A stretch of DNA of 64,000 nucleotides from Rhizodiscina lignyota (lineage: Eukaryota): NCBI GenBank assembly GCA_010015805.1, contig ML978121.1:3968001-4032000 (forward strand). Reading direction: 5' to 3'. A model generated the notes under the pieces. That model made no database searches, was not told where the DNA came from, and saw only the letters and a list, made by a program, of their open reading frames with translations. The first letter of the stretch is position 1. Every line of letters begins with the position of its first letter. Positions 6,513-33,286 of the stretch are shown here, piece by piece. The position numbers and the translations under genes are program-made.

Positions 6513-6808
6513 GCATGCAACGGAGTGTGTGGTAGAAAGAGCTGAAGAGGTTGTTATAAAAGTTAGGCCTACTGATGTGGACGCTGCGCGCGACGCGCTA
6601 GGCTCTAGCGGGGTAGCTAGCGCCACAACGCGGCGCCACACCATCACTCGCCACTACACGCTCCACTCTTTGCGACTCCACCCGGACCTCTTCTCCACTG
6701 CATCTACATCCTCAAATTTGATGGCCGAAGTGAAAGAAGTACAAGAAACTCTCACAGCGATTGTCTCATCATTGTTTCGCTCACGACGCGCCCCCGAAGA
6801 ACCGAACC

Positions 6809-8247
6809 ATGGCATTGCAAACACTCCGAAAATGGGCCTCCCAGTCGTCATTATCGCTTCTGGGAAACCTCGGAAACGCTGTCGAAGTGGAAGAGCCTGA
6901 ACTGAAAGAGCCAGTTCATCTACCAGCAGAGATTATTCTCGAAATCCTGTCGTACCTCCCACTCACTCGACCCTCCACCCAAAGCACGCTCTTCAACGTT
7001 TGCCTCGTGAGCAATGACTGGTATCAAGTCGCAATCGCTCGCCTCTATTACCAACCCTACATCTCCGGAAAGAATTTCGATCTATTTGTACGGACAATTT
7101 GTCCCTCGATAAACGCTCATATCCGCAAGTCAGACCTTGCCGGGCTGGTCCACGTGCTGGATCTAAGCCGACTCGTCCACCATTCCACCAAATCCACAAC
7201 TGCTCGATTGCTCGGCCGGACGAAACCAAAGTTGATGTGGTTTCGAGCGCCTGCTAGCTCGTTTGGCTTGAATTGCTTTGCGGCACTTAGCAAGTGTAAG
7301 GAGCTACGAGCCCTGGATCTCTCGCTCGTCAACGATGCGATCTCAATGCATTCGCTAGCTCATTCTTTGAAGAATCTTGGTGAATTAAAGCGACTCTATC
7401 TCCCACGATCAACTCCACGGGTCGAAGGGTTCGAAGCCTCAAGTTTTATCTTTCCTCCTCACCTTAATGAGCTTGTTCTGCAAGGTGGTATCTCGGATAC
7501 CTTTGTAAAGGACCTGGCACAGCCATTGTTGCGATTAGGTGTCAACGACATATCACTTACTTTCAAGCACTGCCCTTATGTCACTTCCACTGGAATCAGC
7601 GATCTTCTCTCGCCGACACAACATGTACTGCACACTCTGAATGTCTCCCACGTACCCTCTCTAGATCGTCGACGTTTCCGCTCCCTTCTGAACTATGTCC
7701 TCCAGCTGTGTCCGCTCAAGGAGCTGAGCATATCCACGGATTACGTGACATGGGAGCTTGTGTGGCATAATGACCTGTTTCGTAAACTACTGGATCCGAT
7801 GCTCTTGGACGACCCTTATGACAATAGTACGACGCGCGATCTCCATCGTCTTGCCATCGACAAATGGAAAACAAGCGATTTCAAGAGGATAATTGAGAAG
7901 GGCAAGGGTCATCCTCTCCAAGTTCTTGAGCTTACGAGCTCGGGAAATCCAATACTGGACTCTGATGAAATGTTACGACCCGCAGGTAAGAACGATGCTG
8001 TACCACTACTTGACGCAGACAGAGTACTAAATGCCTCACAGAGATTGTTTTTGCGATAGATTGCGGTTACCTTGAGAATCTGCGACACATCGCAGTGTCC
8101 AATAACTGTGGTTGGGATAGAGACGCCTTCAAGTGGGAGATGAAGAAACTTGGGGAGCTCGTCTATGAACTTGCAGGGGAAGAGACGATAATCACCACGA
8201 ATGGTACCAATGAAGTCGATGTCGGCATATACACCTTTGATGACTAG
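6809..8247 (+). CDS. F-box / LRR-like protein; intron 7986-8041
   Basis: F-box LPAEIILEILSYL...VSNDWY followed by LRR-like segments. A GTAAGA..CTAAA..CAG intron restores the frame to TAG at 8247. Confidence 0.8.
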
Positions 8248-9730: not shown

Positions 9731-10540
9731 TCATGATCCCAATTCCCGCAATGTCTTAGCAGCCAGCTTTTTCTGCTGGTCCAGAGTAAGTCTTTCTTGA
9801 TCTGTCTGCTGGAGTGCTTTGCCCACAGCCAGTGTCATCTTGACATCTCCGCCATCAACCCATAGTTTCCCGTTCCTCCCAACAGCCACCTCGAACCCAA
9901 TCTTTTCAGCCAGAGCCTCCAAAATCGTGACCGCCCCTCCTCCTTGTTCTGCGGGAAGCGGAACTTTACTCTCCGACAGTAATAGCCGCCTGCAGAAGCC
10001 CAGACTGACATCGAAGAGCATTCCGCCCTTCAATGGGCCTAATCCATCTGCCTTGCCGGACGATGCGGAGACGCACGAGAGTTCAGGATCCATGTCTCTG
10101 CTGGCGCTGCTTATGCGTGCATACACCAATGCGCCAGGAGCAAGTTGTGGACGCGTCTTTCGTGTCGCTGACTCGAATGCTAGTTGAGGGAGGTTCGCTT
10201 GGGCAGCATGAGGCGTGATGGTGCAGTGGTAGAAGTCTGAGGACGAACGAAGGACGGTTGCGATTACAAGGTCGTTCACGTGTGGAATATACTGCGGACT
10301 GGTCAATTGAACGATCAACGTTCAAATACTGGGATAATGTCTGACTCTGCCTCTGTTTGTTTCAATCCACAGCGCATTCTTGCGTGCATCGACAGTCAAT
10401 GTGCCAGAAACGGTGGCCCGCACGGAGGACGGAGGAGCATGGCGAAGACCTGGGCCAAGTACAAGCGGTTTATGGTTTCCTTTCGGTAATAGACTGCTCG
10501 GTACCTCATCACCGGGCAGGAGTAGTAGTGTGGACGTCAT
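9731..10540 (-). CDS. RRP40: Exosome complex component Rrp40; intron 10292-10345
   Basis: LLLPGD...LGPGL; spliced GR|YIPHVNDLVIATV; LAFESATRKTRPQL; FEVAVGRNGKLWV. Confidence 0.92.
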
Positions 10541-10731
10541 TCTCAGCTGCGGTGAACCGTTTTTGGCATATCGTGTTGTTGGTGTGAGAAGTTGATGACT
10601 CGGTGGAGAGATGATTCAGTGCTGCTTGAGAGCCCCACCTTGAATTTAAAGAGCTCACGCACACACCAAAAACACATATAACCACCCTTCGAGCCCCTTG
10701 AACCCCTTTCCCTTTGACTGCCCATCACAGT

Positions 10732-12510
10732 ATGGCTGAAGAAGCGAAAGAAATACCAGAGCGGCCAAAGGAGGGTGAGGCAGCTGCGCCAAAGGATGGC
10801 GAAGAGAAAGGCCCCTCCAAAAAGGCCTTGAAGAAGTTGGAGAAGGAGAGAGAAAAGGTGCGCCCTACTACACTCCCGAAGGATAGATTGTGCTAATTTC
10901 TATATTCTACAGGCTGAGAAGAAGCGACTTCAAACCGAGAAAGACGCAGCAGCAAAAGCTGCCGCTGATGCCAACGACGTGTCGAAGGGCGACTATGGCG
11001 ACAGCCCGATCATAGGATCCGCAGAATATACAGCACCGGGCCTGAAGCGCGTCGATTTCAGTACGCTTGGAGAATTGGAAGATGGCAATGAGGTGGCAGT
11101 CCGCTGCGTCGTGCGCAACGCGCGCAGTCAGTCTGCGAAGCTGGCCTTCCTCGAACTGCGTGAGGGATTCCATACCATACAGGCGGTTATTGCGGCGAGC
11201 GAAACACTGAGCAGGCAGATGGTCAAGTTTGTGGCCAGCATAAATCCAGAATCTGTCGTGGATGTCATCGGGCTGGTCAAGGAGCCAAAGGAACCGGTCA
11301 AGAGCGCGACGATCAGCAATCGCGAGATTCACATCTTGAAGATATGGGTGGTTGCGAAGGCAGAACCACAGCTACCTATTCAAATTGACGATGCAGAGCG
11401 ACCGTTGCCTGCGGAAGGCAGCGAGGAGGGCGCGAGCGGAGACGACGGACGACCACTTGTGGGACTGAACACGCGACTTGACAATCGTGTGCTGGACTTG
11501 CGCAGTATGCTTAACCACGCCATCATGGGCATAAAGGGAGGCGTGAGCCGTCTGTTCGAGGAGTTCATGTGGGAGCATGGCTTCCAGCAAATATGGTCAC
11601 CAAAGATCCTCGGCGCTGCGACAGAAGGCGGCAGTAACGTCTTCGAGCTCAAATACTTCAACACATCCGCATATCTCGCCCAGAGCCCTCAATTCTACAA
11701 GCAGATGCTTATTGCCGCGCGGTATAAGAGAGTCTTCGAGGTTGGTCCTGTCTTTCGTGCAGAGAACAGCAACACTGCACGACATCTTACAGAGTTCGTT
11801 GGTCTTGACCTGGAGATGGAGTTCAACGAGCACTATCATGAAGTCTTGGACTTTCTAGAAGATATGGTCCTGCACATATTCAACGGTCTGCGCACGAGAT
11901 ACAAGAAAGAAACCGACCTCGTGAGATCCGTATACAAGGTGCCGGAGTTCCAGCTCCCAGAATCCGGCAAGGTTCCCAGAATTCCCTTCTCAGAAGGGAT
12001 CAAAATGCTCCGCGAAGCAGGTGAAGAGCTGAGTGACTACGACGACCTAACGCAAGCCCCTCCTTTCCTCCTTCCAAACCACCACTAATAAGAAACAGGA
12101 CCCCCCAAGAAAAACTCCTTGGCAAACTCGTTCTCGAAAAGTACCATACCGACTTCTACACCCTCGACCAGTTCCCCCTCTCCATTCGTCCCTTCTACAC
12201 TATGCCCTCTGGCATCAACCCGCAAAACAGCAACTCCTACGACCTCTTCATGCGCGGGCAAGAGATCATGTCCGGTGCGCAACGTGTGCACGACTATGAG
12301 CTGCTGTGCAAGCGCATGCGTAGTTTCGAGCCACCACTCGACCCGGAGAGTCCTGGTTTCAGGAGCTACACCAGCGCGTTCAAGTATGGATGCCCGCCGC
12401 ATGCAGGTGGTGGGTTTGGGCTTGAGAGGATTGTGATGCTGTGGCTGGGACTGCCGAATGTGAGGTTGGCAAGTCTGTTCCCGAGAGACCCATCGAGAAT
12501 CATGCCTTGA
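10732..12510 (+). CDS. DPS1: Cytosolic aspartyl-tRNA synthetase; introns 10858-10912 (GT-AG) and 12052-12098 (GC-AG)
   Basis: OB-fold, [67 protein letters not shown]. Confidence 0.95.
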
Positions 12511-12921: not shown

Positions 12922-14813
12922 TCAGACGCTGCCGTTCTGTGCTATCGCAGGTTTATCTAGCATCCCCCTCGTGCCACCCTTCCCATTGACCTCTCTCGCA
13001 ATGATCTGCACGTCTAGCTCAGCGCCCACGCTCACTTGCACCTCCACTTTGGAACCCTTCTTCGTGCCTCGGACAGCCATCTCGGCAAGCACGCGGCCTG
13101 CTTTCCATACCTTTTCACGGATTTCCTCTTCATCGTCATCATCATCGTCATCATCGTCATCATCGTCCTCGTCCTCGTTCGCTCCATTCGTTTTCGGCTT
13201 TGCCTCGGGCTTTGTTACTTTGATCTCGCGTACGCCCTCGCACAGCTTCACTAGCACATCTCCACCTTCTCTTGGGACTGCGACATGCGCCGTCCGCCGT
13301 ACCGGGACGGGAGTTTCCGGCTCAATCATCAACGTGAAGACACCTGCACCTTTCTCATCCCCTGATATTGAAAGTACTCCGATTGCATGCGCGAGATGAG
13401 GAGTGGATGTCACAACTGGATGCGTACTCTGTTCAATGTCGTCTGTGTCGAATGCCTCGACTAGTGATGCTTGAATCGCTGCACCTCGTGCGGCAAGCTC
13501 GTTAGGATTTATCGCCGTGGGTGAAAGCGTTGGCGCGAACACCGTGGTTGTCGGAGGGAATTCGTCTGCTAGACTACGCGACAGTTTTGGTGTGTGGGAA
13601 TTACCGCCGGCGCAGATAATCTCGTTGATGTCAAGAACGTCCAGCTCGGCCTTTTCAACGCAGTGTACGACGAGTCGTTTCAACGATTGGAAATGTTTCG
13701 AAGCGAGCAGTTCGTATCGTGAGCGATTGATCGTTGCGGTGAAGTCGATGCCGCCAGAAAGCGACTCCACGGAGAAAGATGCGGATTGACCCAGACTGAG
13801 CGCTTTCTTGACAGCTTCAGACTCAAGCTTGAGTTTCGCCAGACTTCGAGGATTCTCTCGCGGGTCTTCCACGCCCTTGTTCTTCTTGAGGAATTCTTTA
13901 GCGAAGTAGTCGATCAGCACTTGATCGAGTTGCGCGCCAGAGACGTCGTAATCGTGCGCTGTAGCAAGAATTGTGTACATGCCACCTCTTGAAGCAATGA
14001 CCGCAACATCTGAACGGGTACCACCAACATCGACCACTACTACATTTTTATCCGCATGCTTCGCGTCGGGTCGCGCATCGTAAGCGAGGACATCGGCGAC
14101 TGGTTCGTGGATGAGCTGAAGCACCTCCAAGCCTGCATCCTCCGCAGCTTTCTTCAAAGCGGCCCTTTGCTTGTCTGAGAAGTTTGTCGGCACTGTTATG
14201 ACCACGGCGTTGACTTGCTTTCCGAGGAAGTCGGACGCCGAATTCTTCAGGCGACGGAGATGTCTGGTTGTAATCTCGGATACGGTGACCGTGTTCTCGC
14301 TTTCTGCTTCGCTGTCGCGGATGGAGAATGCGACGGTGCCTTCGTGCTCTTTCGGATGGGCGGATTGGTGGCATGGCGTTGGATCTACCGACTTAAAGCT
14401 GTACGTCGTTAGATTCATCGCATTGGGGACCTGAGACGGGCCCTACTCACTCTTCACCCAAAAAGTCCCTGAAATAAGCAACGGTATTCTTTGAATTCCG
14501 CACCAGTTGTGCCTTTGCTTGTGTCCCTTGAAATTCCTCTCCCTCGACATACGATAAAATCGTGGGTATTTGGCGATCTATACGAAAGTGTCAGTCACAC
14601 TCAGTAAACCTGCTACGCTTATACTGACCTCCTTCTTCATTCGCAATGACTTCTGCCTTGCCTTCCTGTACAATATGTCAGAACCATTCCAAACCAAAGT
14701 AATTCTTAGCGGCCAATCGAACTGACGCTGGTTGTGAATGCGATTGAGCTGTATGAGTTCCCGAAAGAAATTCCGATGGCCACCCTACCGGGCGACTCTT
14801 CTTCGTCACTCAT
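12922..14813 (-). CDS. SSZ1: Ribosome-associated Hsp70-like chaperone Ssz1; three 5' introns
   Basis: Spliced N-terminus VAIGISFGNSYSSIAFTTS|EGKAEVIANEEG|DRQIPT; VVDVGGTRSDVAV; NPNELAARGAAIQASL; acidic insert and shortened C-terminus. Confidence 0.9.
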
Positions 14814-14885
14814 TTTGAGAGTAGAGAGTTGAGAAGAGGTTGAATGTGGGGCGGTCAAAAATGAATTGATTTCTTCGATCCGCCG

Positions 14886-14939
14886 GAATTTTTTTAAGAT
14901 TCGGGCTCATCCTCGGTTGAATGTCGGGTCAGTGACTCA
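14886..14939. promoter_or_regulatory. RRPE-like (GAATTTTTTT), PAC-like (GCTCATC) and CPC-1/Gcn4-type TGACTCA motifs upstream of SSZ1
   Basis: Motifs at 14886-14895, 14905-14911 and 14933-14939, within 130 bp of the ATG. Function is inferred from yeast/Neurospora knowledge only. Confidence 0.35.
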
Positions 14940-15197
14940 GCCGGCTCTTAAGAGACCCACAAGACCCTTGCAGTGACTTCAACGAGGCATCGTGAAGAAT
15001 ATGTCTGACCTTGAAGAGGTTTTGTTCGTTCCTTTCTCTCACTTGCTATTATAGCGTAGTCTTCCAATTACATAGTGGTGGCTTAGGACTGTAAATTCCC
15101 TGCTTTAGACGAGATTTTCACTATGTATCGAAGTTCTCTTCCATATGTATCCTTTACTTCTGTTGAATAGTACCCCCAACCTCCCAGGAGCTCAGAG

Positions 15198-15800
15198 ATG
15201 ATGAATAACGACGCCACAGTAAGCTGTGTTGCCGGCTCGGACGGCCGTAGGAAGTTGAGTATTATCTGGACCTGCTTGAGCACGTTGTTCCTTTGCCTCT
15301 GGGTTGTCCTGGCATGAAGACTCTCCTGTGAAAAGAGAAACGGTCTCCCAGCCGGTCCGACATAAAGGCAAATTCATAGCTCTCCCCATAATCGCACCAG
15401 GATTCGTCGTATTCGGTGCCTTCAATCAGAGGAGATATGGCGTGTAACGTGTGTGATTCTGACTTCAATTGTACCAAGTCTATGGCTTGTCTTGCTTGCG
15501 CTACTTGCTTTGGAGTTTATCTGCCTTGTCTGACCTTTTTGGAATGATGGCAAGAAAACAGAGAAACGCTGGAAAGAGCTGCATCGAAGGACTACTGAGC
15601 GTCTTAGAAGTACAAGGGAGTCTGCTAAACCAAATATGGAAATTCGCGCCACACTTTCTGGACCTCCTGTCGCTATCTATGTTGCTCTATATTGCGCAGC
15701 ACAGCCCTACATTTCTCATCGAACCTTTCATCAGCTTCGTTCCGCACCAGCGAGCCTTTATGAAACCGTTGACTGGACGAGGTTCATGCCACATCTCGCA
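15198..15800 (+). pseudogene. Frameshifted, internally deleted relic of a common uncharacterised fungal multi-pass membrane protein family
   Basis: TVSCVAGSDGRRKLSIIWTCLSTLFLCLWVVL /fs/ HEDSP...KFIALPIIAPGFVVFGAFNQ resembles the family N-terminus (GRGTxxIxWSCxxTxxxCxWxxxHxNxP...IAPE). LIEPFIS /fs/ LRSAPASLYETVDWTRFMPHL resembles the C-terminus. Confidence 0.7.
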
Positions 15801-16338
15801 GGACAGTATTCGACTTCTACCATCTGACTGCAAGAGGTGTAGTATCCGTCCTGCAGACCCTCAAAGAACCTCGTCTATAGTCACGTATACGTCGGTTCGG
15901 CGATATCATGTGCGATGGAAGGAGTCGGCAGGAAGAGATTCGGGTAGCCTTTTGTCTAGATTATATTACATGAATAGTTGAAGATTATTGCTCCGCAACT
16001 AACAGCTCCCCGTCCATCCTGCAAAAGCAACTTCGCTCATTCGTGTTCACCTCAAATCCATTTCCTTTTATCTTGACCTGGAGGCACGTAAACAACCGCC
16101 CTTGGGTTCCGGAACTCCATGCTTTGTTGAGAAAATGAAATACCAATGCAAAAGCAGTTTGTCCCTCAACAAATTAATGCCCCGAAAAGCAGACTCCCGA
16201 AGAACTCCGCGGAAAGCTGGAAAGATGCGTCTGGTATTCTTCTCCCTTGAATTTTCCTTCTGCTGATGTTTAGTGACTAGAATTTGTTCGGTAAATACGG
16301 CCCCATGTCCAGTGTTAATCGTAAAGCGTATATCTGTC

Positions 16339-17040
16339 TCAGATCATCGAACTCGACGTGGCTTGGTAACTCATAGACAGACCAGCATCAGCTTTCCAGT
16401 TCCATGTCTGGCTGGAGGGTGTGTGCGTACAGTGCTGCAGTAGCCCTCTCTTATCGTTGAAGCACATCTTGCGACGTTGGTTGTCACGCGCCGGCTCAAT
16501 TGTCATATGGCGCGGATTGCAGCATGCCCAATTGCCGCACAGGTGGCTCAAATGCCAACTCGGCTGCTTAAGGAGACCGTCAATCATATCTTTGGTAAGT
16601 TCGTTCCTCATACAGAGTGCGATGATGCCGCAATGCATGGACACAGTTTGTATCTTGCCATTGCGCTTGAATCGCACGGTAGCATGGATATTCCTTCGAT
16701 CCATGTATCTCTGCGCACCCTGATGTATCCAGCACCTTGAATTAGGATAGAGAGGGTCTTTCTTCAAGTGTATGCTCTGCCGATCAAGGTACTTTTGCAT
16801 CCATGCTCTTGCATCAGCCGGCTTCTCGACGAGCACTATGCTCTTCCTCTCGTATAGTGACAATTTGGGGTCCAGCGGTCGGATTGATTGGGCTGAGGGT
16901 TCAGTAGGACTTTTTGCGTAGAGAGACTCTTTGGATTGGTACGAAGAGATTCCTGTTGCCATACGCTCGTGCAAAATGACTGCTGGATAGAGTACAGAGT
17001 TGCTCCGACTGGAATACCACCACGACGATGCCAAAGCCAT
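16339..17040 (-). CDS. His-Cys-box (I-PpoI-like, His-Me finger) endonuclease-domain protein; start at 17040 or 16962
   Basis: SHLCGNWACCNPRHMTIEPARDNQRRKMC aligns without gaps to I-PpoI [29 protein letters not shown]. Upstream RCW Cys and downstream CTH are also present. Confidence 0.85.
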   Translation of the reverse strand: MALASSWWYSSRSNSVLYPAVILHERMATGISSYQSKESLYAKSPTEPSAQSIRPLDPKLSLYERKSIVLVEKPADARAWMQKYLDRQSIHLKKDPLYPNSRCWIHQGAQRYMDRRNIHATVRFKRNGKIQTVSMHCGIIALCMRNELTKDMIDGLLKQPSWHLSHLCGNWACCNPRHMTIEPARDNQRRKMCFNDKRGLLQHCTHTPSSQTWNWKADAGLSMSYQATSSSMI

Positions 17041-18971
17041 TCTCGCTCGATGGGCGTCGATGAGTTCTAACCAATGTCGCCAAATACGATGATAGCGGAC
17101 GGATAGCGAGAATTGCACAACAGACAGTTCGAAGAGTGAAATCGCAAACGGAGTTGATGATATGGAAGCGTTTGCGGAATAATATGTGGATGTCGATGAC
17201 TGAGCGCTCTAAGTTGAGCGACTACTGCTTGTCCTGTTCAAGCATCGGGAACTGAGGTCAAGTCGAAGAGTAAATGAAGAGAGCAAACAAGAAAGAAAAT
17301 GGAGAGTAGAAAACCTGAAGAAGAGTCTCGCCAATGGATTGGTCGTGACTCGAGAAATGAAACCGGAAATGGGTTCAGGTTCACGGGTGAAGAGGGTCTC
17401 CTTAAAGGCGGCATTCCTCCATCACTTATATGGACCAGTGGATCAGGCTCGAGATGGAGATTGAGGTGGGAGAGGATGAGGAATGGCAGTGGTTGAGGAA
17501 GAAAGAAACAAAGATAAGAGCAACGTTAAATAAATAGTTATTTCGGGGCGAATAAGGTACGGGAGCGACGTCAGAATGCGTGCACGCGGCAGGATTTTCA
17601 ATCAGAGAGAGTTTAGAAGCCCTTCAAGTGAAACATCTCGACATCTCGGAAAGAGGAGGAAAGTGAAAGGGCATTGAATTCGGAATTCTGCTTCACTGTG
17701 AGCCTCGAGACGTAGGTCGGAAGGCGGTTGACTTCCGGTCGTCTAAGAAAGAAGTCCATCCAGCGAGAGGTAGTGCGTTAGAATATTTTCACGGCAACTG
17801 AATTCCAAGCTTTTCAATGTATCCTGCTCTTGGGATGGTCTGGCACAAAGGATAGTTTGTTGGTTGTGAGAGGTGCTCCACAGCATGACGGTGATGTAGC
17901 AGTAATGTCGTAAAGGCAGCCTGCATTGAACACATCGGAGGGAAATTTTCGAGGCGATTTATCCTATGCCCGTGTAGCTATGGACCATCCGTGGTAATTG
18001 AGAAGACCAGAGAGACCTTCACTCTTCGAACACAGTCGAGCGAACTGGCGTTCGGTGGTCATGATCTGCCCAAGGAAGCGAGGCTTGACCTCGTAAAGCG
18101 ATGATTCAGTGCGACGTCGGAAAAGACAAGCTTTAATAGCATAATTAGCCGGTGGTCAGCCTCAACATTGAGAACGAGAAGTTCGTTGCATTTTGTTGCT
18201 TTAGAATTAGCCTGTCCACGAATTGAGCGCGGGCGATGGGAATTAGCTTCTAGGCGACGATGACGGAGAAGTCGCGTGAAACAAAGTCAAAGACAGGATC
18301 ATTGAGGTGAAAGAGAGAAGAGTGATGATTTAAAATGTCTTAAAAGGAGCCATTTGAGGAGCGGACGCCAAGACCCCGTCCGAGCGGGCGTGTAGAGTGG
18401 TGAAAGCCACGTCGAGCTTCCGAACGAAACCTGACACTTTCCACCAACCACCAACGCTCCCCTGTCTCCGCATGCACGTTGGAGCAACGTCTCGAAAAGC
18501 CGTCGAGTTCCTGGATCTGCAGCTAGCCCAGGCACATTTAGGCAGGTAAATGAAAATGCTACCCTGCTCCATCTTCGGGCTGAATTCCCATTACCCTGCC
18601 CCGGCGGTGCGAGGATCAAAAGGCGGGGAAAGCTCAAGTAGCTGAAGATTTGAAAAGACGTCATTTTCCAGGCGCATTTTGTGTGTTGTAGCTGACGGTC
18701 TCGAGCAAATTTCTGCTTTGTGGAATTGCTCCATCCTACTTGACACTGTCAGTTTCACGGCAGACAACCCGTGCAACTTGACCTATCACGAGGTCACGTT
18801 CACTGGGAGCTAATTTCTTCACAACAACATTGTTGGCACCTAGACGTGGCTGCTCTCATATTTCTTTAGGCCCTCCTCACAAACAATTAACTCCACTGTT
18901 TCTTTCGCTTGCGAACCTCGACTCTTCTCCTTCGCTCACACACACATCACGCTCTGATAATAACAGCCAAC

Positions 18972-20250
18972 ATGTTGGTAGCGGGCTTTTTATCCTCGGC
19001 CCTCATTCTCCCTGCCATTGCGGCAGTCTTTCCTTCAGGTGGCCCTGGATATTGGGGTAAAGGACACGGACATATGGGCGGAAAGACTAATCTCTATGTG
19101 TCCTCCTGTAAGTCAATCACGTTCGACACTGAGCAGATATCTATTCTCATGGCCTTCAGACGTCGGCACCGTGACCACTCTCTCGCTTAGCGGCACCAAC
19201 CTCGACATCACCTCCTCGGTCCCCTGCGCTCAAAATGCGTCGTGGCTCACATTCGACTCCCAGGATCGCATCCTGTACTGCCTTGATGAGGGTCTCGTAG
19301 TTCCCAATGGCACTGTGCACTCGTACTCTGTTGCCAAGGACGGTAAGCTGACTCCAATTGAGGAGAAGACTACCATATCTGGCCCTGTCAATGGTGTTCT
19401 CTACGACAAACATGACGGCAAGCAAGGCTACGCCCTCGCCCACTACACTGGCAGTGCTGTGTCAGTCTGGTCCGTGGATGAGAAAGGTTCCCTCGACAAT
19501 GTGCAAGACATTTTCTTCACGCTCCCTCACCCCGGTCCGAATCCTTCGCGTCAGGATGCGCCACACGAACATGAGGCTATCCTCGACCCTACCAAGAAGT
19601 ACATCCTCGTTCCTGATCTCGGTGCAGATCTCGTCCGTGTCTTCTGCTACGACCCTGAGACGTTCAAACTGACAGCCCACGAGCCGCTCCATGCCAAGGC
19701 TGGCTCAGGTCCCCGTCATGCAGCGTTCTGGGTGAACAAGGGAAAGACGTACATGTATCTTGTAGCGGAGCTTGGTGTCACGGTCACGGCGTACGAGGTC
19801 ACGTATGTCAAGGAGGGTGGTCTATCATTCAAGGAGATTGAAGTGTCAAACACATTCGGTGGCGCGCCTATTCCGGATGGAGCTGCACCGGCAGAGATTC
19901 AAGTGTCGCCAGATCAGCGCTTCATCGTCATTTCCAACCGCAACGACTCTTCGTTCTTTCTCCCGAACTTCGACCCAAAGAACAAAACTGCAGAGCCTTC
20001 TGACTCTCTGGCAACGTTCGCACTGAAGGAAGATGGTACGTTGGACTTCCACGGCCTCGCGCCAGCAGGAGGAAGCTTCCCGCGCCAGTTCTCCCTGAAT
20101 GGCGATGGCAGCTTGGTCGGTGTCGGTCTCCAATTCAGCAGCCGCGTTGTCGTTATTGAGCGGGACATCAAGACTGGAGTGATTGGTAAAATCGTGGCTC
20201 ATGTTCCTCTGCCTGGACAGATCACTTGCGTTGTCTGGGATGAGCAGTGA
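18972..20250 (+). CDS. Secreted 7-bladed beta-propeller lactonase (6-phosphogluconolactonase / carboxymuconate cyclase family); intron 19108-19159
   Basis: Signal peptide MLVAGFLSSALILPAIAA; RQDAPHEHEAILDP, VPDLGADLVR, GSGPRH, ISNR, GGSFPRQFSLN. Confidence 0.9.
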
Positions 20251-21468
20251 GGCTTCATCTGCAAGCTGCTCTGACTTTGATGCTCTACTTTGCGGTGCAT
20301 TGATGATAACGAAGCGAACCTACTTTTAATCGGGTTCCCTGTACTCCGTAGCTAGGAAAGAAATTCAGTCCATAAACACGTGATGAATAAGCCGGCATAA
20401 TGTACACGACACCATGCGTTTTGCAGACGTTGTGCTTCTTCTCCGGAATGGTGGTGAGTGGCTTGACAAGCCTCATCCTCATCCAACCACGCTAGCGGCG
20501 GAAGCAGCTTGCCGACGCCGACTCCGACGCCACTACATCATCGGCCGGCGAAAGTAGACGCCGACATTTGAGGCTCCTGTCAAACGCTAGAAATGGCACT
20601 ACGACTCCAATTGCTAGAGACTTGCGGCTCCGTCGACGGCGTGTCACGCCGACTCTACACCATAGCTGTTGCGCTTGCAACTCAACTCCGCAACCTTCTG
20701 AGCTACCGGCTCTCCACATTCGCCCAGATATCCAGCTCTACCCGCGTACAGGAACGTGCTGTTCTTCGAGCAAAGATCTCCAATCGTATCACATGGTCTT
20801 ATACACATTCGACTGGTCTGTTCAGTGGGGTAGCACCGATCCACTGCCGCACGCGTCTCAGAAGATGCGCAAACTCATGCAGAAGCAAAGGCGTTTTCGC
20901 TGTACGTCAACGAGAAACGCGAAGTGAGCATGACAGCTGCAACTGAATGCAGCTCCGGAAGTGGGCAGTACAATAATAGGGTATGTTGAGTACATTCCTG
21001 CGCTGGGTTTAGACCGATGGTTGTTTCGCGGCGAAATTTCCATGTGACCACCACCAAGCGTCTGGATAGAGTGCAGACACCATGGAATTCTCACATCGGA
21101 ATATGCTGCAAGCCGTCTAAATGGGCTACTCTACGCTAACGCTGCTGACAATTGTGCATGTTAGATAGGTTGAACGGTACCGAGGAATATTGATAAAGGG
21201 AAAGCATACACCCTTTTTTTCAGTGTAACTTCACCGTCAATTTTCTGTGCTGCAACATCTGGTCGCGAAGCATCGAATGTCTTAGTCCGAGTCTCGAATT
21301 ATTGGTACATTTCCCTCCAAATCTGATTCCATGTGAGGATCTCAATTGGATAACGACAGTTGTGGCTATTGCGGAAACGAGTTGGTGTAACGTGGTGTCC
21401 AATTTGAAAGTTGTTTGCTATTTTATCCTCCACCAATTTCGCTTAACTAGAGGTTGTTTGCGGATACA

Positions 21469-28176: not shown

Positions 28177-29576
28177 TCATTGGGACATTTTCGCCCCTGG
28201 TATCGACAGGATTTTTCTCAAGTCTAATTCATACCGAGCTTTGTTTTGATCAAGAGCCCACTTGACCGCCTCCCAGACACCAGGCTGAATGGTTTTTGGA
28301 CTCCATGCCGGCTCACCGTTCTGATAAACGCCGGTTCGGACGAGAATTGACTCCCACGTCGTACCCAATGGACTCTTGTACGAATTCGCACCTCTGATAT
28401 CGCTTTCCGGGTTGTCGCCGACCATGTACACTTTCTGTAATGGAGGAACTTCCCCGTCTATTTGGTTACTAAACAGATGCTTGCGGTGCGAATTGAGTCT
28501 CCGCTCCGCAAATTCGTAAGTCATTCGATACGGTTTGCCAATCAGAGTTTTGTACAGTTCAACGTTTCGCTCGGGGCCACCCGTTACAGCAGTCCATAAG
28601 CCTTCCATCGCTTCCCGAAATCCGCCTTGGCCGAGCCGAGGCAGGTGGTATTTTGCAGCCCACCACAAATCAGGGTTGGAGTAGAACAAGGGTGGTTGAC
28701 CATCCTGCAGATATCCATGGTTGGGGGCCTTTATGTCACCGTTTCTGGGAGACATTGTGCCGAGAATTCCCTTGTGAGAGAGAAGTATATCGAGAATTAT
28801 GGTCGCGTCCAAGCCCCAATCGCGTGGGTCATTGTATACAAAGATGGCATCAATTTTCAACGAGTCGGAAGGGCTGTCTTGAAGTATCGGCTTCGGTAAT
28901 GGTCTGGCGAATGGTTGGTAGTACGGTAGGAATTGCGTCGAGAATGGCCATATCTCTGGATACGCGCAAAAGATGTCGCCCGGAATCACGACAGACTTGA
29001 AGCCATACCTGGGGCAATTTAGTCTCTGCCAAAAGCGTAGGAGAATCGCACAGATGCCCACTTCTCTGCAACGTATCTGCACTTGTCACCGTCTCCCCCA
29101 CAAACCAAGATAGTCTTATCCTTATACTGGTCCAAATCCGCGAATGGTGTATGGCTTTGCACAAACATGGTTGTATCCAACGGCACCTTCAGCTTTGCAG
29201 TCAGGTCTGCAACTCTTTCCTCCTCCGGCTTTCCCCCGCCATTCGTCAGGAGGATGAACGGTATCCGCTGGTGTTGCAGAAACGAGAGCGCATCCGGCGC
29301 GTTGGGTAGAGGGTCATTGCTTCGAACGAGTACACCGTCTATGCTAGCAACGGTGAGAACTCGAAACGATCAGGCCAATTGTAACATCTTTTGAGGCATC
29401 GCTTACTCGAATGCGAAGGCAAAGTCAGGTATCTTCGGCGACGCAGTGGAGAAGGACTTTTCGTAACGTCGGGATGGGGACAAAACAGGCCGCCATATTG
29501 AGACGCGCTCGCTGTGATGGCTTGATCTGGTGTTATAAGAGGTGACTAATCGCTGCAGCGGACGACATGCGGCCAT
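28177..29576 (-). CDS. HAD-superfamily IIA hydrolase (CECR5/HDHD5-like, probably mitochondrial); introns 29344-29406 and 29009-29061
   Basis: Spliced FAFD|IDGVL, IPFILLTNGGG, VQSHTPF, NDPRDW, SNPDLWW, GKP, YMVGDNPESDIRGAN. Confidence 0.9.
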
Positions 29577-29815
29577 TGAAGGGGCATTGGATGCTTGTAA
29601 TGCGCAATTTAAAGGTTCAAAAGTAAGAGACGGAGATATCAGTTTATGCGGAGGAACATGGGTTATGTCCGACTTCATGATTCATGCATCGGCTTACGCA
29701 TGGATTATGTCAGCCTCGTGGCGAGACGTAAGGAGTTGATGCCTTTGCGACTTCACATATCCCTCATGGAAGTGACCTGAGGATTGAAGGAGACATTGCA
29801 GAACAAGCCGCCAAC

Positions 29816-32189
29816 ATGCCAGATGCCTCAGCGCTTGATCTGCTGGCCCATCAACAGCAGAAGAGGGCCCGAGCTCAGCTCTCTTGCACCGCATGTCGTG
29901 TCGGCAAGCTGAAATGCAACCGAGCCCACCCGGCCTGTGATCAGTGTATCAAGAGGAACAAGGAGTCTTCATGTCAATATATTGCTGCTCCCCCAAGGAA
30001 GAAGCCAAATCAGAGCATGAAAGAGCGGATCAAGCATCTGGAGAATCTCGTGGTTGAACTGTACAATTCGAACAACTCCGAGTCACCAGAGTCAGATCCT
30101 TCTGCGAACGGATCCAAGTCTACACCTTCGCAAAATGAATCACCTGCGAATGGTTTGAACAGTGCTCAGCGGCCCTCCGCGCAACAAAGCTGGACTGTTG
30201 AAAGTGACGAGAACAACAATGCTTTTGGTCGCATGAAGATTAGCAAGACGGAAAGCAAATATGTCGGCGGGTCGCACTGGGAGGCCATTCTCGACAATAT
30301 CGCCGAAGTCCGAGCAGCGCTTGATGAGCCTGAAGATGGACCTGAAGGAGTAAGTGCGTCGCCAGCGTCATCAGATCAAACAGCTGCGACCTTTCCAGTT
30401 CAGAGCCTTCTAAATCCAAATCCCAATATCAAGCCGACAAGGGCAGATCTCATCCGAGCATTACCATCACGCCCGCGTGCTGATTCGCTTGTTGCCGGAT
30501 TCTTCAACTCTCAGAGTCCTACCGTAGTTGCCATCCATGGGCCGACTTTCCAGAAAGAGTACCAGGAGTTCTGGGGGAACCCGGATTCAAGGTCTCTCCA
30601 GTGGCTAGCAGTACTCTTCGGTATCATATCCCTCACATCTCGACAGGAAGATTATGGTGTCTCGCATTTCCGCGCACCTAAAGGCCAGACCTCAGAAGAG
30701 ACTCGAAAGTACCACAGCATGGCCGCATCTGCGATCATTCTGTCCAATTATATGCGGCCAGCTGAGGGCATCTGTGAGGCAATCATGTTGTACACGGAAG
30801 GCGTCTACATGGATACGGAACATGAAGATGACCACCTCGAAGTTTGGCTGTTGCTTGGCCTTAACATCCGTGTGTCCCTTCGAATGGGCTATCACCGTGA
30901 TGGCGGCAATCATACGAAAATCAGTGCTTTCCTGAGCGAGATGAGAAGAAGGCAGTGGTCTCTGCTCTACCAGTTCGACGTCTTGTTATCTTTCGAAATG
31001 GGCCTCCCAGGGATGATGCTGCAGACAGCGCAAGATGTCAAACCGCCATCAAACCTCTTTGATCGCGATTTCACTTCAGAATCTGATCCGCTCCCTCCAG
31101 GTCGACCAGATGACGAGCTGACCCCGTGCTCATATAGCCGAACTAAATCTCGAATAGCCAAGGCTTTCGGAAAGATTGCGGAACATTCACATGCCATCAA
31201 TCCGCCCTCACGTTCGGAAGTGCTTATGCTAGACAAGGAGCTCCAGGAAGCTTCCGATGCGATTCCTCCGGCACTTCGTGTGCGTTCTCTCGAAGATTCC
31301 ATCACGGACCCAGCCGGTCTTGTAATGTGCCGATTCAATCTCGATCTTCTCGTTCAAAAGTCCAGGTGCTTATTACACCGCCGCGTCCTGACTGAAGCCG
31401 GATCGGGCGAGTTCGTTGATTACTCTCGCTCAAACTGTATCGATGCTGCAATCAAGCTCTTGGAACAGTTGGCACGCGTTGACGCTGCGTGTGAGAAGAA
31501 GATGATGCCTCGTGGATGGTACATCTCCAGTCTCAACGTCCATGATTTCTTGCTGGCTTCGATGGTCCTCAGTCTCGAACTCGACCGCCGACTCAAGGCC
31601 TTGCCAGAGAATGGCGATGCTGTGTCAGGATCCCAAGATCTCGAGGAAATGAGGAGCATGCTCGAAACGACGTATCAGATCTGGCAGAAGCCGATGCATC
31701 GCTCTGCAGAGACTCAGAAGGCCTCGAAGGTAGTATTGCTCATGTTGAGCAAGGTTGCTCGGTCGGCGCGACTGAAAAAGAAGCCGACTGAGCACGACAT
31801 CCCGACGCCGTACTCGGGTTTGAAAGGACCTTTCACGGCACAGTCTCCGATGATGCGGCAGAGCCCAGCCCAGCAGGCTCAGGATATCCTGACCAATCCC
31901 TTCACATATGGTCCGCGCCCCGAAGACGGTATCGTGCCGATGTCGATGGACTTTGGCGAGCTTGATCAGTTCACGCCGATTGGGGAGATGTTTGATATGC
32001 CGATGGATCTTGACTGGGTGAGTAATGGAGCTTCTTCGCGTACAGTTCTTCGGGCAACTGCTGACCTCTTATCTCCAGAGCACTTGGGACACGTATATAT
32101 TTGGGCAACACCCTGCTCCAAACATGGTCCAGCGTTATGCGAATGTCCTCGATGGATCGTTGACGGATATGCCACCGCCATTACCATAG
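29816..32189 (+). CDS. Zn(II)2Cys6 fungal transcription factor; intron 32018-32078
   Basis: CTACRVGKLKCNRAHPACDQCIKRNKESSC, YVGGSHWEAIL, RMGYHRD, EMRRRQW; spliced tail DLDW|STWD. Confidence 0.92.
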
Positions 32190-33286
32190 TGAAGCAGCAA
32201 TCGGCCTAGCCTCAAGATATACACCAAGTCCAATACGCAGTGTCCTCGTCGCTTATGTCGATCCCTGATCCTGCTTCTTGCCAAGTTCGTTGGTGCGCCG
32301 CATGCAACGTGGTCGGATAATAACGGCAAACGCGATAGCAAATGCGCGCCCAAGAGTACCTACCGATTCTGGTGTAGACGAGCCGATCATCAAGAACTCT
32401 GCATTCGATTGATGACTTGCACGGGACAATATAGCATTAGGAGGGTGCTAGTGGGAGGAAGTCGACCTCGAGAATGACAGAGTAATGGAGCCCGATGTAG
32501 TTCGGAAAGGTGTCGCTCAAATGAGTTTCGCTCTTCAACACATGCAAGAGCATTTCTTGAAGCCGGATATGATGTGCTATGAATAGTAACCATTCGCAGA
32601 TGTTCGGGATCCTGTTAAGGCGTCAATTTTCGCAAGTCTGCACGAATATAATGACTGGACTCTAGTTCCAATTGATTGGTACCTCGACATGCAAGCGAAG
32701 TGCAGTATTCAACGCAGTTGCGCTGAGAGAATCCGACTTCTTTAGGCCTTGACGTGCTACATTTAGAGGGTCTGACCGTCATGGAATTGGTAGTGACGTG
32801 CAACGAGATTTTGTCTGTCATGCTCCTGAAGGTCCTCCTAGCGCTTGGCGAAGTTGCGTCAAGGGAATTCAAAGTTAAGTAAAATTCACTCACCACTCGT
32901 ACACTCTCACCACGTAAACACCCACACATCTTCCTCTACTCTTTACCTATATTATTCATAGTTGAAAATGCGTCACTCTGTTATGCCAAGTACGATATGT
33001 AAGATCATAACACGTGACCAAGGGCGCCGCAGACGACGCCAAAGGAAGCACCTGACACTGGGTAAACGAGTGAAAAAAGCGTCATAAGAATCAGATTCCC
33101 TATCTTCCTTTCGCTCTAATTATGGCACAGAATTTGGGATGCTTGTACGGCGTAAGGAGTTCATTTAAACATTACAGCTTGCCCAGCGGCCAGCTATTTT
33201 GTGACCCTCAAGACAGCCAAACATTGAACGAATCCAAACAACCGTCTCAAATGGCGTATGAACGCTAATTATTATGGTGTCTAGCA

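Follow-up and report, generated by a model that had tools for sequence, protein, structure and literature searches.

A syntenic family of I-PpoI-like His-Cys-box nucleases in filamentous ascomycetes, probably host-domesticated, and its reduced member in Rhizodiscina lignyota

The His-Cys-box gene described here, found in a 64,000-nucleotide stretch of Rhizodiscina lignyota DNA (the window), belongs with little doubt to the host and is not a mobile element: an I-PpoI-type enzyme was captured in a common ancestor of four fungal classes and then inherited in a loosely conserved neighbourhood. The marks of a domesticated gene are present, namely a conserved neighbourhood, a vertical tree and purifying selection, the last measured on relatives and indirectly for the window copy. 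The near-invariant residues of the family make it probable that its members still cut DNA by the His-Me mechanism. A role in genome maintenance, DNA repair or recombination is suggested by features of the protein sequences and could go either way, and the best explanation as a whole, that of a domesticated, still catalytic nuclease of repair or recombination, is likewise evenly balanced. Fold, residues, synteny, tree and selection on relatives were observed, and we infer the catalysis, the recruitment and the role.

The gene is a 233-codon open reading frame with an ATG start on the minus strand (Table 1), and the closest relative found, P0002 (231 aa, 41% identity), begins at the aligned position. 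An earlier note on this DNA, made from its letters, had called the frame intronless, which holds for the core; the 5′ end is provisional without RNA. GC3 is 0.58, inside the range of the neighbouring genes (0.52-0.61), and no RIP-like shift was seen in the nuclease gene. A hidden upstream exon encoding the arm found in most relatives was considered and set aside, as the arms of all relatives tried gave no match to a separate upstream stretch, which is weak evidence because the arms diverge fast. The pyrimidine-rich region upstream of the gene is probably its 5′ UTR or promoter. The TATA-like word that the earlier note had placed at about 17430 is present, but CATATAAG does not fit TATAWAW and that pattern occurs 13 times in the window against 8.6 ± 3.3 in shuffles, so it is not evidence of a promoter. 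An upstream ATG frame of about 58 codons (17240-17416, minus, read by eye) and a branch-plus-acceptor-like signal at 17261-17234, which has no consensus donor, were also observed, and a 5′ UTR intron or uORF upstream of the gene is possible. In the gap downstream of the nuclease, a 145-codon frame (15544-15981, plus) has no Pfam match and is probably not a gene.

Table 1 Features of the nuclease gene and of its conserved neighbours, in window coordinates
Feature	Position	Strand	Remarks
His-Cys-box (PF05551) nuclease-family gene, 233 aa	16339..17040	minus	ORF; short form, without the long disordered arm of most relatives
Pyrimidine-rich upstream region with CATATAAG at 17432-17425	17041..17432	minus	From sequence
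Family-specific basic helix, residues 61-72 (E-R-K-R/S)	16825..16860	minus	Helix 62-72 in the model; precedes the I-PpoI-aligned range
Cys103, first ligand of zinc site 1	16732..16734	minus	Cys in 149/150 relatives; pattern as in PMC3699495
Beta-hairpin, residues 119-136	16633..16686	minus	Model strands 119-126 and 129-136
His-Me finger and zinc sites, residues 162-210	16411..16557	minus	H166 general base, N187 metal ligand, C168/C173/H178, C193/C204/H206, Ser210, Lys191
F-box gene, commonest shared neighbour	6734..8056	plus	7/25 loci
RRP40 and class II tRNA synthetase	9734..12510		RRP40 common to L023, synthetase to L018
Hsp70-family gene (SSZ1-like in the earlier note)	12922..14813	minus	Common to L023, 68% identity
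Lactonase gene (main exon), conserved neighbour	19096..20250	plus	Head-to-head with the nuclease, as also in L018, L022, L037 and L047
HAD hydrolase and Zn2Cys6 transcription factor	28180..32206		Hydrolase common to L018, L030 and L037, transcription factor to L037

The domain and fold of the window protein are those of I-PpoI. PF05551 matches residues 103-216 with 44.6 bits (E 2e-11) against a curated cut-off of 27, which settles the profile check that the earlier note had proposed. The gap-free core match seen in that note, between I-PpoI 95-132 and window residues 163-200, was recovered; it is weak in a single-sequence phmmer search (E 0.079) and is lifted by the family profile to E 2e-5 to 7e-5. 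A structure model built from 150 sequences reached a pLDDT of 81, and its top fold among 48,161 chains was I-PpoI (Z 8.1, rmsd 4.4, 125 aligned residues, window residues 72-216), followed by I-HmuI (Z 4.6), Smad4 MH1 (Z 3.8) and NFIC (Z 3.7). The top four Foldseek rows were likewise all I-PpoI (E 0.03-0.09), while an earlier model from 4 sequences had a pLDDT of 49 and gave no Foldseek match. Homodimer prediction, computed without use of the alignment, scored 0.00 and speaks neither for nor against a dimer.

A profile search returned 755 representatives of the family at E ≤ 0.001, including 115 at E ≤ 1e-30, and the counts of relatives given here use the best 150 of the 755. They share a domain of about 160 aa with the signature W-H-x-S-H-L-C-G-N-W-x-C-x-N, in which 22 positions are at least 90% conserved. 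In the alignments, window residues H166, C168, C173, H178, N187, C193, C204 and H206 are equivalent to I-PpoI H98, C100, C105, H110, N119, C125, C132 and H134, respectively. The His98, Asn119, C100, C105, H110 and C125 equivalents listed in the earlier note are thus all in place, but its inventory overlooked a lost ligand and a second substitution: the position of the eighth zinc ligand, I-PpoI C138, is Ser210 (codon AGC) in the window protein and Cys in 145/150 relatives, and the helix +4 Asn position is Lys191 (Asn in 133/150). Zinc site 1 is complete (C103, C168, C173 and H178), and the pattern of site 2, intact in 145/150 relatives, is broken by Ser210, leaving the window protein with seven of eight ligands. 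An intron at a donor-like site at codon 204 was rejected as the source of the missing Cys since P0002 aligns with the unspliced frame up to and including the next Trp, and no other frame has the motif. Across the family, the H166 column is His in 145/150 relatives, the N187 column is Asn in 144/150 and the zinc ligand columns are kept in 145-150. The site patterns C-nX-C-4X-C-4X-H (site 1) and C-nX-C-X-H-3X-C (site 2) are those in the available text of PMC3699495, and the roles of the His-Me finger residues are as described in that of PMC5714182.

In the basic helix that is specific to the family, K66 is kept in 142/150 relatives and R65 in 124/150. The hairpin of residues 119-136 would be the counterpart of the DNA-recognition sheet of I-PpoI. 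At hairpin positions 117, 119, 121, 123 and 125 no residue is found in more than 45/150 relatives and the buried positions are conserved; the varying alternate positions are probably exposed. Such variation is easier to reconcile with a sequence preference that is weak or drifts than with a single fixed target. For the phosphate-binding Arg in the beta-sheet of I-PpoI, which we take to be R61, the best candidate is column 113, where 95/150 relatives have Arg or Lys and the window protein has Met, in a region without residue-level alignment.

The established role of His-Cys-box enzymes is that of intron parasites in rDNA. In this case, Rfam found no group I intron or rRNA at the locus (13000-21000), where six matches all lay below their gathering scores, so the absence of a host intron and of rRNA stated in the earlier note survives the intron-model search that it had suggested. 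Near the related loci, of which 20/45 were scanned, no Rfam match reached the gathering score and no rRNA or group I intron was seen. A group I intron or rDNA context was consequently discarded for the locus and for these 20/45 loci, and these searches gave no sign of the group I intron of nuclear rDNA that defines an intron-encoded His-Cys-box homing endonuclease. In the whole R. lignyota genome RF00028 was not found among the 26/756 candidates scored, and an LSU search with a stricter filter gave one fragment, on another contig. Searches of viral contigs for relatives gave three pattern matches, none of which was confirmed.

Members of the family occur in Leotiomycetes (Botrytis, Sclerotinia, Cadophora, Hyaloscypha, Mollisia), Lecanoromycetes (Xylographa, Trapelia, Pleopsidium), Candelariomycetes and Dothideomycetes (Aulographum, Phyllosticta, Cenococcum, Glonium, Periconia, Lentithecium, Didymosphaeria), the class of four named members having been looked up and that of the remainder being presumed. 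Those met are annotated as 'hypothetical' or 'uncharacterized', or are named by a locus code or by the label of a Pfam domain. In the titles and abstracts of the papers found there was no description of the family; members may already be included in subscription papers or in supplements, that of PMC5714182 in particular.

Most members are longer than the window protein. At least 100 residues precede the core in 103/150 (median about 198), and these arms are acidic, rich in Ser and Pro, and disordered. S/T-Q is the motif of ATM/ATR-type kinases, and hydrophobic-then-acidic motifs bind SUMO. Relative to local shuffles, the arms are enriched 1.67-fold in S/T-Q, 9.6-fold in DTQ and 13-fold in SIM-like motifs, against 1.03, 0.87 and 1.56, respectively, in 80 disordered segments taken as controls from other fungal ORFs, with the caution that the counts are not independent, are inflated by relatedness and, for DTQ and SIM-like motifs, come mostly from few subclades each. 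An enrichment of NLS-like motifs was set aside because the control segments were also enriched (2.4-fold). BRCT domains were identified in 2/65 members scanned and in 0/111 others, at the N-terminus of P0047 and of P0093 from Aulographum hederae. The Mit1-type zinc finger PF18585 is present in 6/111 members (P0038, P0151, P0164, P0171, P0173 and P0190), which form a subclade and carry it C-terminal to the nuclease. No longer forms of the family were found in a search that covered only 1599-4565 aa.

The evidence from genomic context weighs most, the neighbourhood of the gene being loosely conserved at other fungal loci. A metagenome scan gave 53 pattern matches at 45 loci, from which 20 near-copies (at least 88% nucleotide identity to a retained locus) were dropped to leave 25, and a neighbour counted as shared if its match to a window gene reached at least 100 bits and 35% identity. 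Window neighbours were found at 10/25 of these dereplicated loci, several of which cluster with named Leotiomycetes and so are not fully independent, and at 9/13 of those of at least 10 kb; three unrelated 60-kb control stretches of the same genome each gave 0/25 (Fisher p 1.9e-7). The adjoining 60 kb to the left gave one locus, and the 30 kb to the right and the surroundings of the other PF05551 copies of the genome gave none. The F-box gene was shared with seven loci, the lactonase with four, the HAD hydrolase with three, and the Hsp70-family, RRP40, tRNA synthetase and Zn2Cys6 genes with one each; the lactonase of L036 fell narrowly under the threshold at 34.96% identity. Fifteen of the 25 loci had no window neighbour at threshold, four of them long (L008, L013, L024 and L039). 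Gene order and orientation are shuffled among loci and the immediate neighbour of the nuclease changes. As the immediate neighbours vary while the wider neighbourhood persists, the family has no fixed target gene.

Further observations were made on individual neighbours. In L022, L023, L036 and L037 the next gene after the nuclease encodes about 900 aa with a weak PFU match, and it has a homologue 9 kb to the left of the window (G000:C1:3958828-3959796, L074); this match holds two internal stops, which may be introns. An upstream neighbour common to L011, L017, L019, L024, L027 and L032 was not found in the R. lignyota genome with one query. A HET-domain gene (L027:13631-15298, minus) and its homologue (L037:11905-13479, minus) lie just downstream of the nuclease at these two distant loci.

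The tree is congruent with the fungal classes. A maximum-likelihood tree of 39 rows (36 named proteins, the window protein and its two closest relatives) requires four changes of class label, the minimum possible, where shuffled labels required 17.5 on average and were as low in 0/200 cases. Leotiomycetes form one side of a branch supported at 98/99 and Lecanoromycetes one supported at 76/86; the rows of Dothideomycetes do not form a single clade, and the tree brings long branches together. The dN/dS check proposed in the earlier note was run on relatives, and core pN/pS was 0.13, pooled over seven close pairs without a common locus (61 synonymous and 28 non-synonymous changes); deeper pairs, which are saturated, gave 0.05-0.12. 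Low dN/dS is also found in true homing endonucleases. A pair of short 181-aa forms, L037:9872-10483 and L047:9517-10128, was left out of the pool, and has a core pN/pS of 0.67 against 0.13-0.31 for three neighbouring genes, which suggests that short forms may be relaxed. In this pair, selection may have become relaxed or positive once the arm was lost.

The window copy is itself a short form. With P0002 and P0003, the latter 188 aa long and found on a contig of 714 bases, it forms a group supported at 100/99, on a long stem of 1.3. P0002 is also short, so the short build is common to the lineage, and both relatives keep the last Cys, which makes Ser210 private to the window protein among the three. 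No S/T-Q, DTQ or SIM-like arm motifs and no BRCT were found in it. The window copy holds 21/22 near-invariant positions; had its terminal branch (0.46) evolved neutrally, about eight changes would be expected (p 6e-4). This retention speaks indirectly against neutral evolution along that branch and would be compatible with a very recent loss. A fast-evolving short lineage would have lost the arm and, here, one zinc ligand as well. The window copy may be a minimal enzyme that a partner recruits or, lacking the arm and the eighth ligand, may be under relaxed selection. Because it is reduced, a full-length relative would serve further study better.

In the R. lignyota genome (33.4 Mb, 33 contigs), searched with the window sequence and with two other family members, the window gene was the sole strong match, so that the paralogue count proposed earlier comes to one family member. 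Two further PF05551 copies, from a different subfamily, were observed: one near 2894800 of G000:C3 (L001:1195-1911, minus) and one near 2061000 of G000:C2 (L003:1258-1923, plus), the latter with an in-frame TGA. They are 48% identical to each other over 162 aa, have extra C-terminal Cys/His motifs, match the window protein only over the motif and have no neighbours in common with the family loci. Possibly they are scattered remnants of a lineage that was more mobile.

Among the alternatives, it is very improbable that the gene is a free-standing selfish homing element, a toxin or a meiotic driver, which was the main idea of the earlier note. The intact nuclease core without a host intron and the two unrelated PF05551 copies, one with an in-frame stop, speak for it, and homing genes can stay at one locus for long. 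Set against this are the absence of a fixed target gene, with immediate neighbours that change in a wider neighbourhood that stays, the class-congruent tree and the single family member in the genome. Moreover, no second copy of the surrounding 4-kb stretch was found in the genome, the search for terminal repeats or element ends around the gene gave just short pairs at chance level, and an antidote-like partner gene common across classes was not found at the compared loci. The domesticated nuclease, also listed in the earlier note, is the option that the synteny (10/25 against 0/25), the tree and the core pN/pS of 0.13 support; the selfish and toxin or driver options lose their support to synteny, tree and single membership. 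That note would have yielded to a conserved, syntenic single copy of known function, and apart from the function this is largely the case.

A domesticated site-specific cutter resembling HO would be a regulated enzyme whose programmed breaks fall at a single genomic site or at a few, and it might serve the sexual cycle, rDNA turnover or defence against invading introns. Vertical, syntenic inheritance fits it equally, and the family descends from site-specific enzymes with active site and beta-sheet intact; a fixed long target should, however, keep the exposed hairpin positions constant, and these vary widely. Lineage-specific targets would answer that objection, and we regard this cutter as unlikely overall. 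Also unlikely, and compatible with the best explanation, is a family that is functional while its window copy decays as a relic, selection on that copy having recently been relaxed. The lost arm, the Ser210 that replaces a Cys present in 145/150, Lys191, the stem branch of 1.3 and the pN/pS of 0.67 in another short form all point that way, against which the frame is open, 21/22 conserved positions are retained (p 6e-4) and two relatives with the same short build keep the Cys. It is quite improbable that the protein acts as a regulator by binding DNA or chromatin and, like the Smad MH1 domain, has no further need to cut. Smad4 MH1 and NFIC are third and fourth in the fold search, acidic disordered arms are found in regulators, and MH1 is described as a degraded endonuclease in the available text of PMC5714182; MH1 is there without the catalytic His, whereas the family keeps His in 145/150 and Asn in 144/150.

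Under the best explanation, that of a domesticated nuclease, the common ancestor of Leotiomycetes, Lecanoromycetes, Candelariomycetes and Dothideomycetes would have captured an I-PpoI-type His-Cys-box endonuclease, which would since have been inherited in one loosely conserved neighbourhood. H166 would activate water and N187 would hold Mg. The disordered arm, with its S/T-Q sites for checkpoint kinases, its SUMO-binding-like motifs and, in few species, a BRCT domain or Mit1-type zinc finger, would recruit the full-length protein to chromatin that is damaged, stalled or recombining, and there the protein would nick or cut DNA with little sequence preference. The link to repair draws on short motifs, non-independent counts and a rare BRCT, and this was counted against the explanation. 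Tentatively, and with somewhat more doubt than belief, we propose that several filamentous ascomycete classes may possess an undescribed, catalytically live, domesticated His-Cys-box endonuclease that is switched on by checkpoint phosphorylation and SUMO via the arm, and that makes regulated cuts in host DNA in repair, meiosis or programmed rearrangement. Such an enzyme would be either the His-Cys-box equivalent of HO or a repair nuclease of a new sort. If true, this would be a second path from homing endonuclease to host enzyme, with regulatory arms and with the active site retained across four fungal classes under purifying selection, and an unrecognised nuclease in fungal genome maintenance. 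The family also offers hundreds of natural His-Cys-box scaffolds.

Yeast HO, a homing endonuclease that its host has adopted, has a LAGLIDADG fold, a relationship to inteins and one known target; WHO elements and VDE are still selfish and sit at a fixed target gene. Like HO, the family would represent host takeover of a homing endonuclease, and unlike WHO and VDE it has no fixed target gene. It resembles I-PpoI in fold (Z 8.1), in the His-Me active site and in the two zinc sites of its consensus, and differs in being an ordinary syntenic chromosomal gene without intron or rDNA, with an extra basic helix and, in most members, a long arm; the window copy differs further in having 7/8 zinc ligands. 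The available text of Jablonska et al. (2017, PMC5714182) places 62 eukaryotic, fungal members in His-Me finger group 12, the I-PpoI group, and names homing endonucleases alone as defining; the window protein passes the Pfam cut-off of PF05551, and that text does not describe a conserved intron-free syntenic host family. PF05551 genes are listed in the available text of PMC12482156 as ORFs of Naegleria rDNA plasmids, unlike which the members of the family are chromosomal syntenic genes and do not sit on rDNA molecules. Smad MH1 is given in the available text of PMC5714182 as a host-adopted relative that lost the catalytic His. The family is like Smad MH1 and the NFI DNA-binding domains in consisting of host proteins with a related fold, and unlike Smad MH1 in keeping that His (145/150). 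On this comparison, the nearest parallels of the family are HO and Smad MH1.
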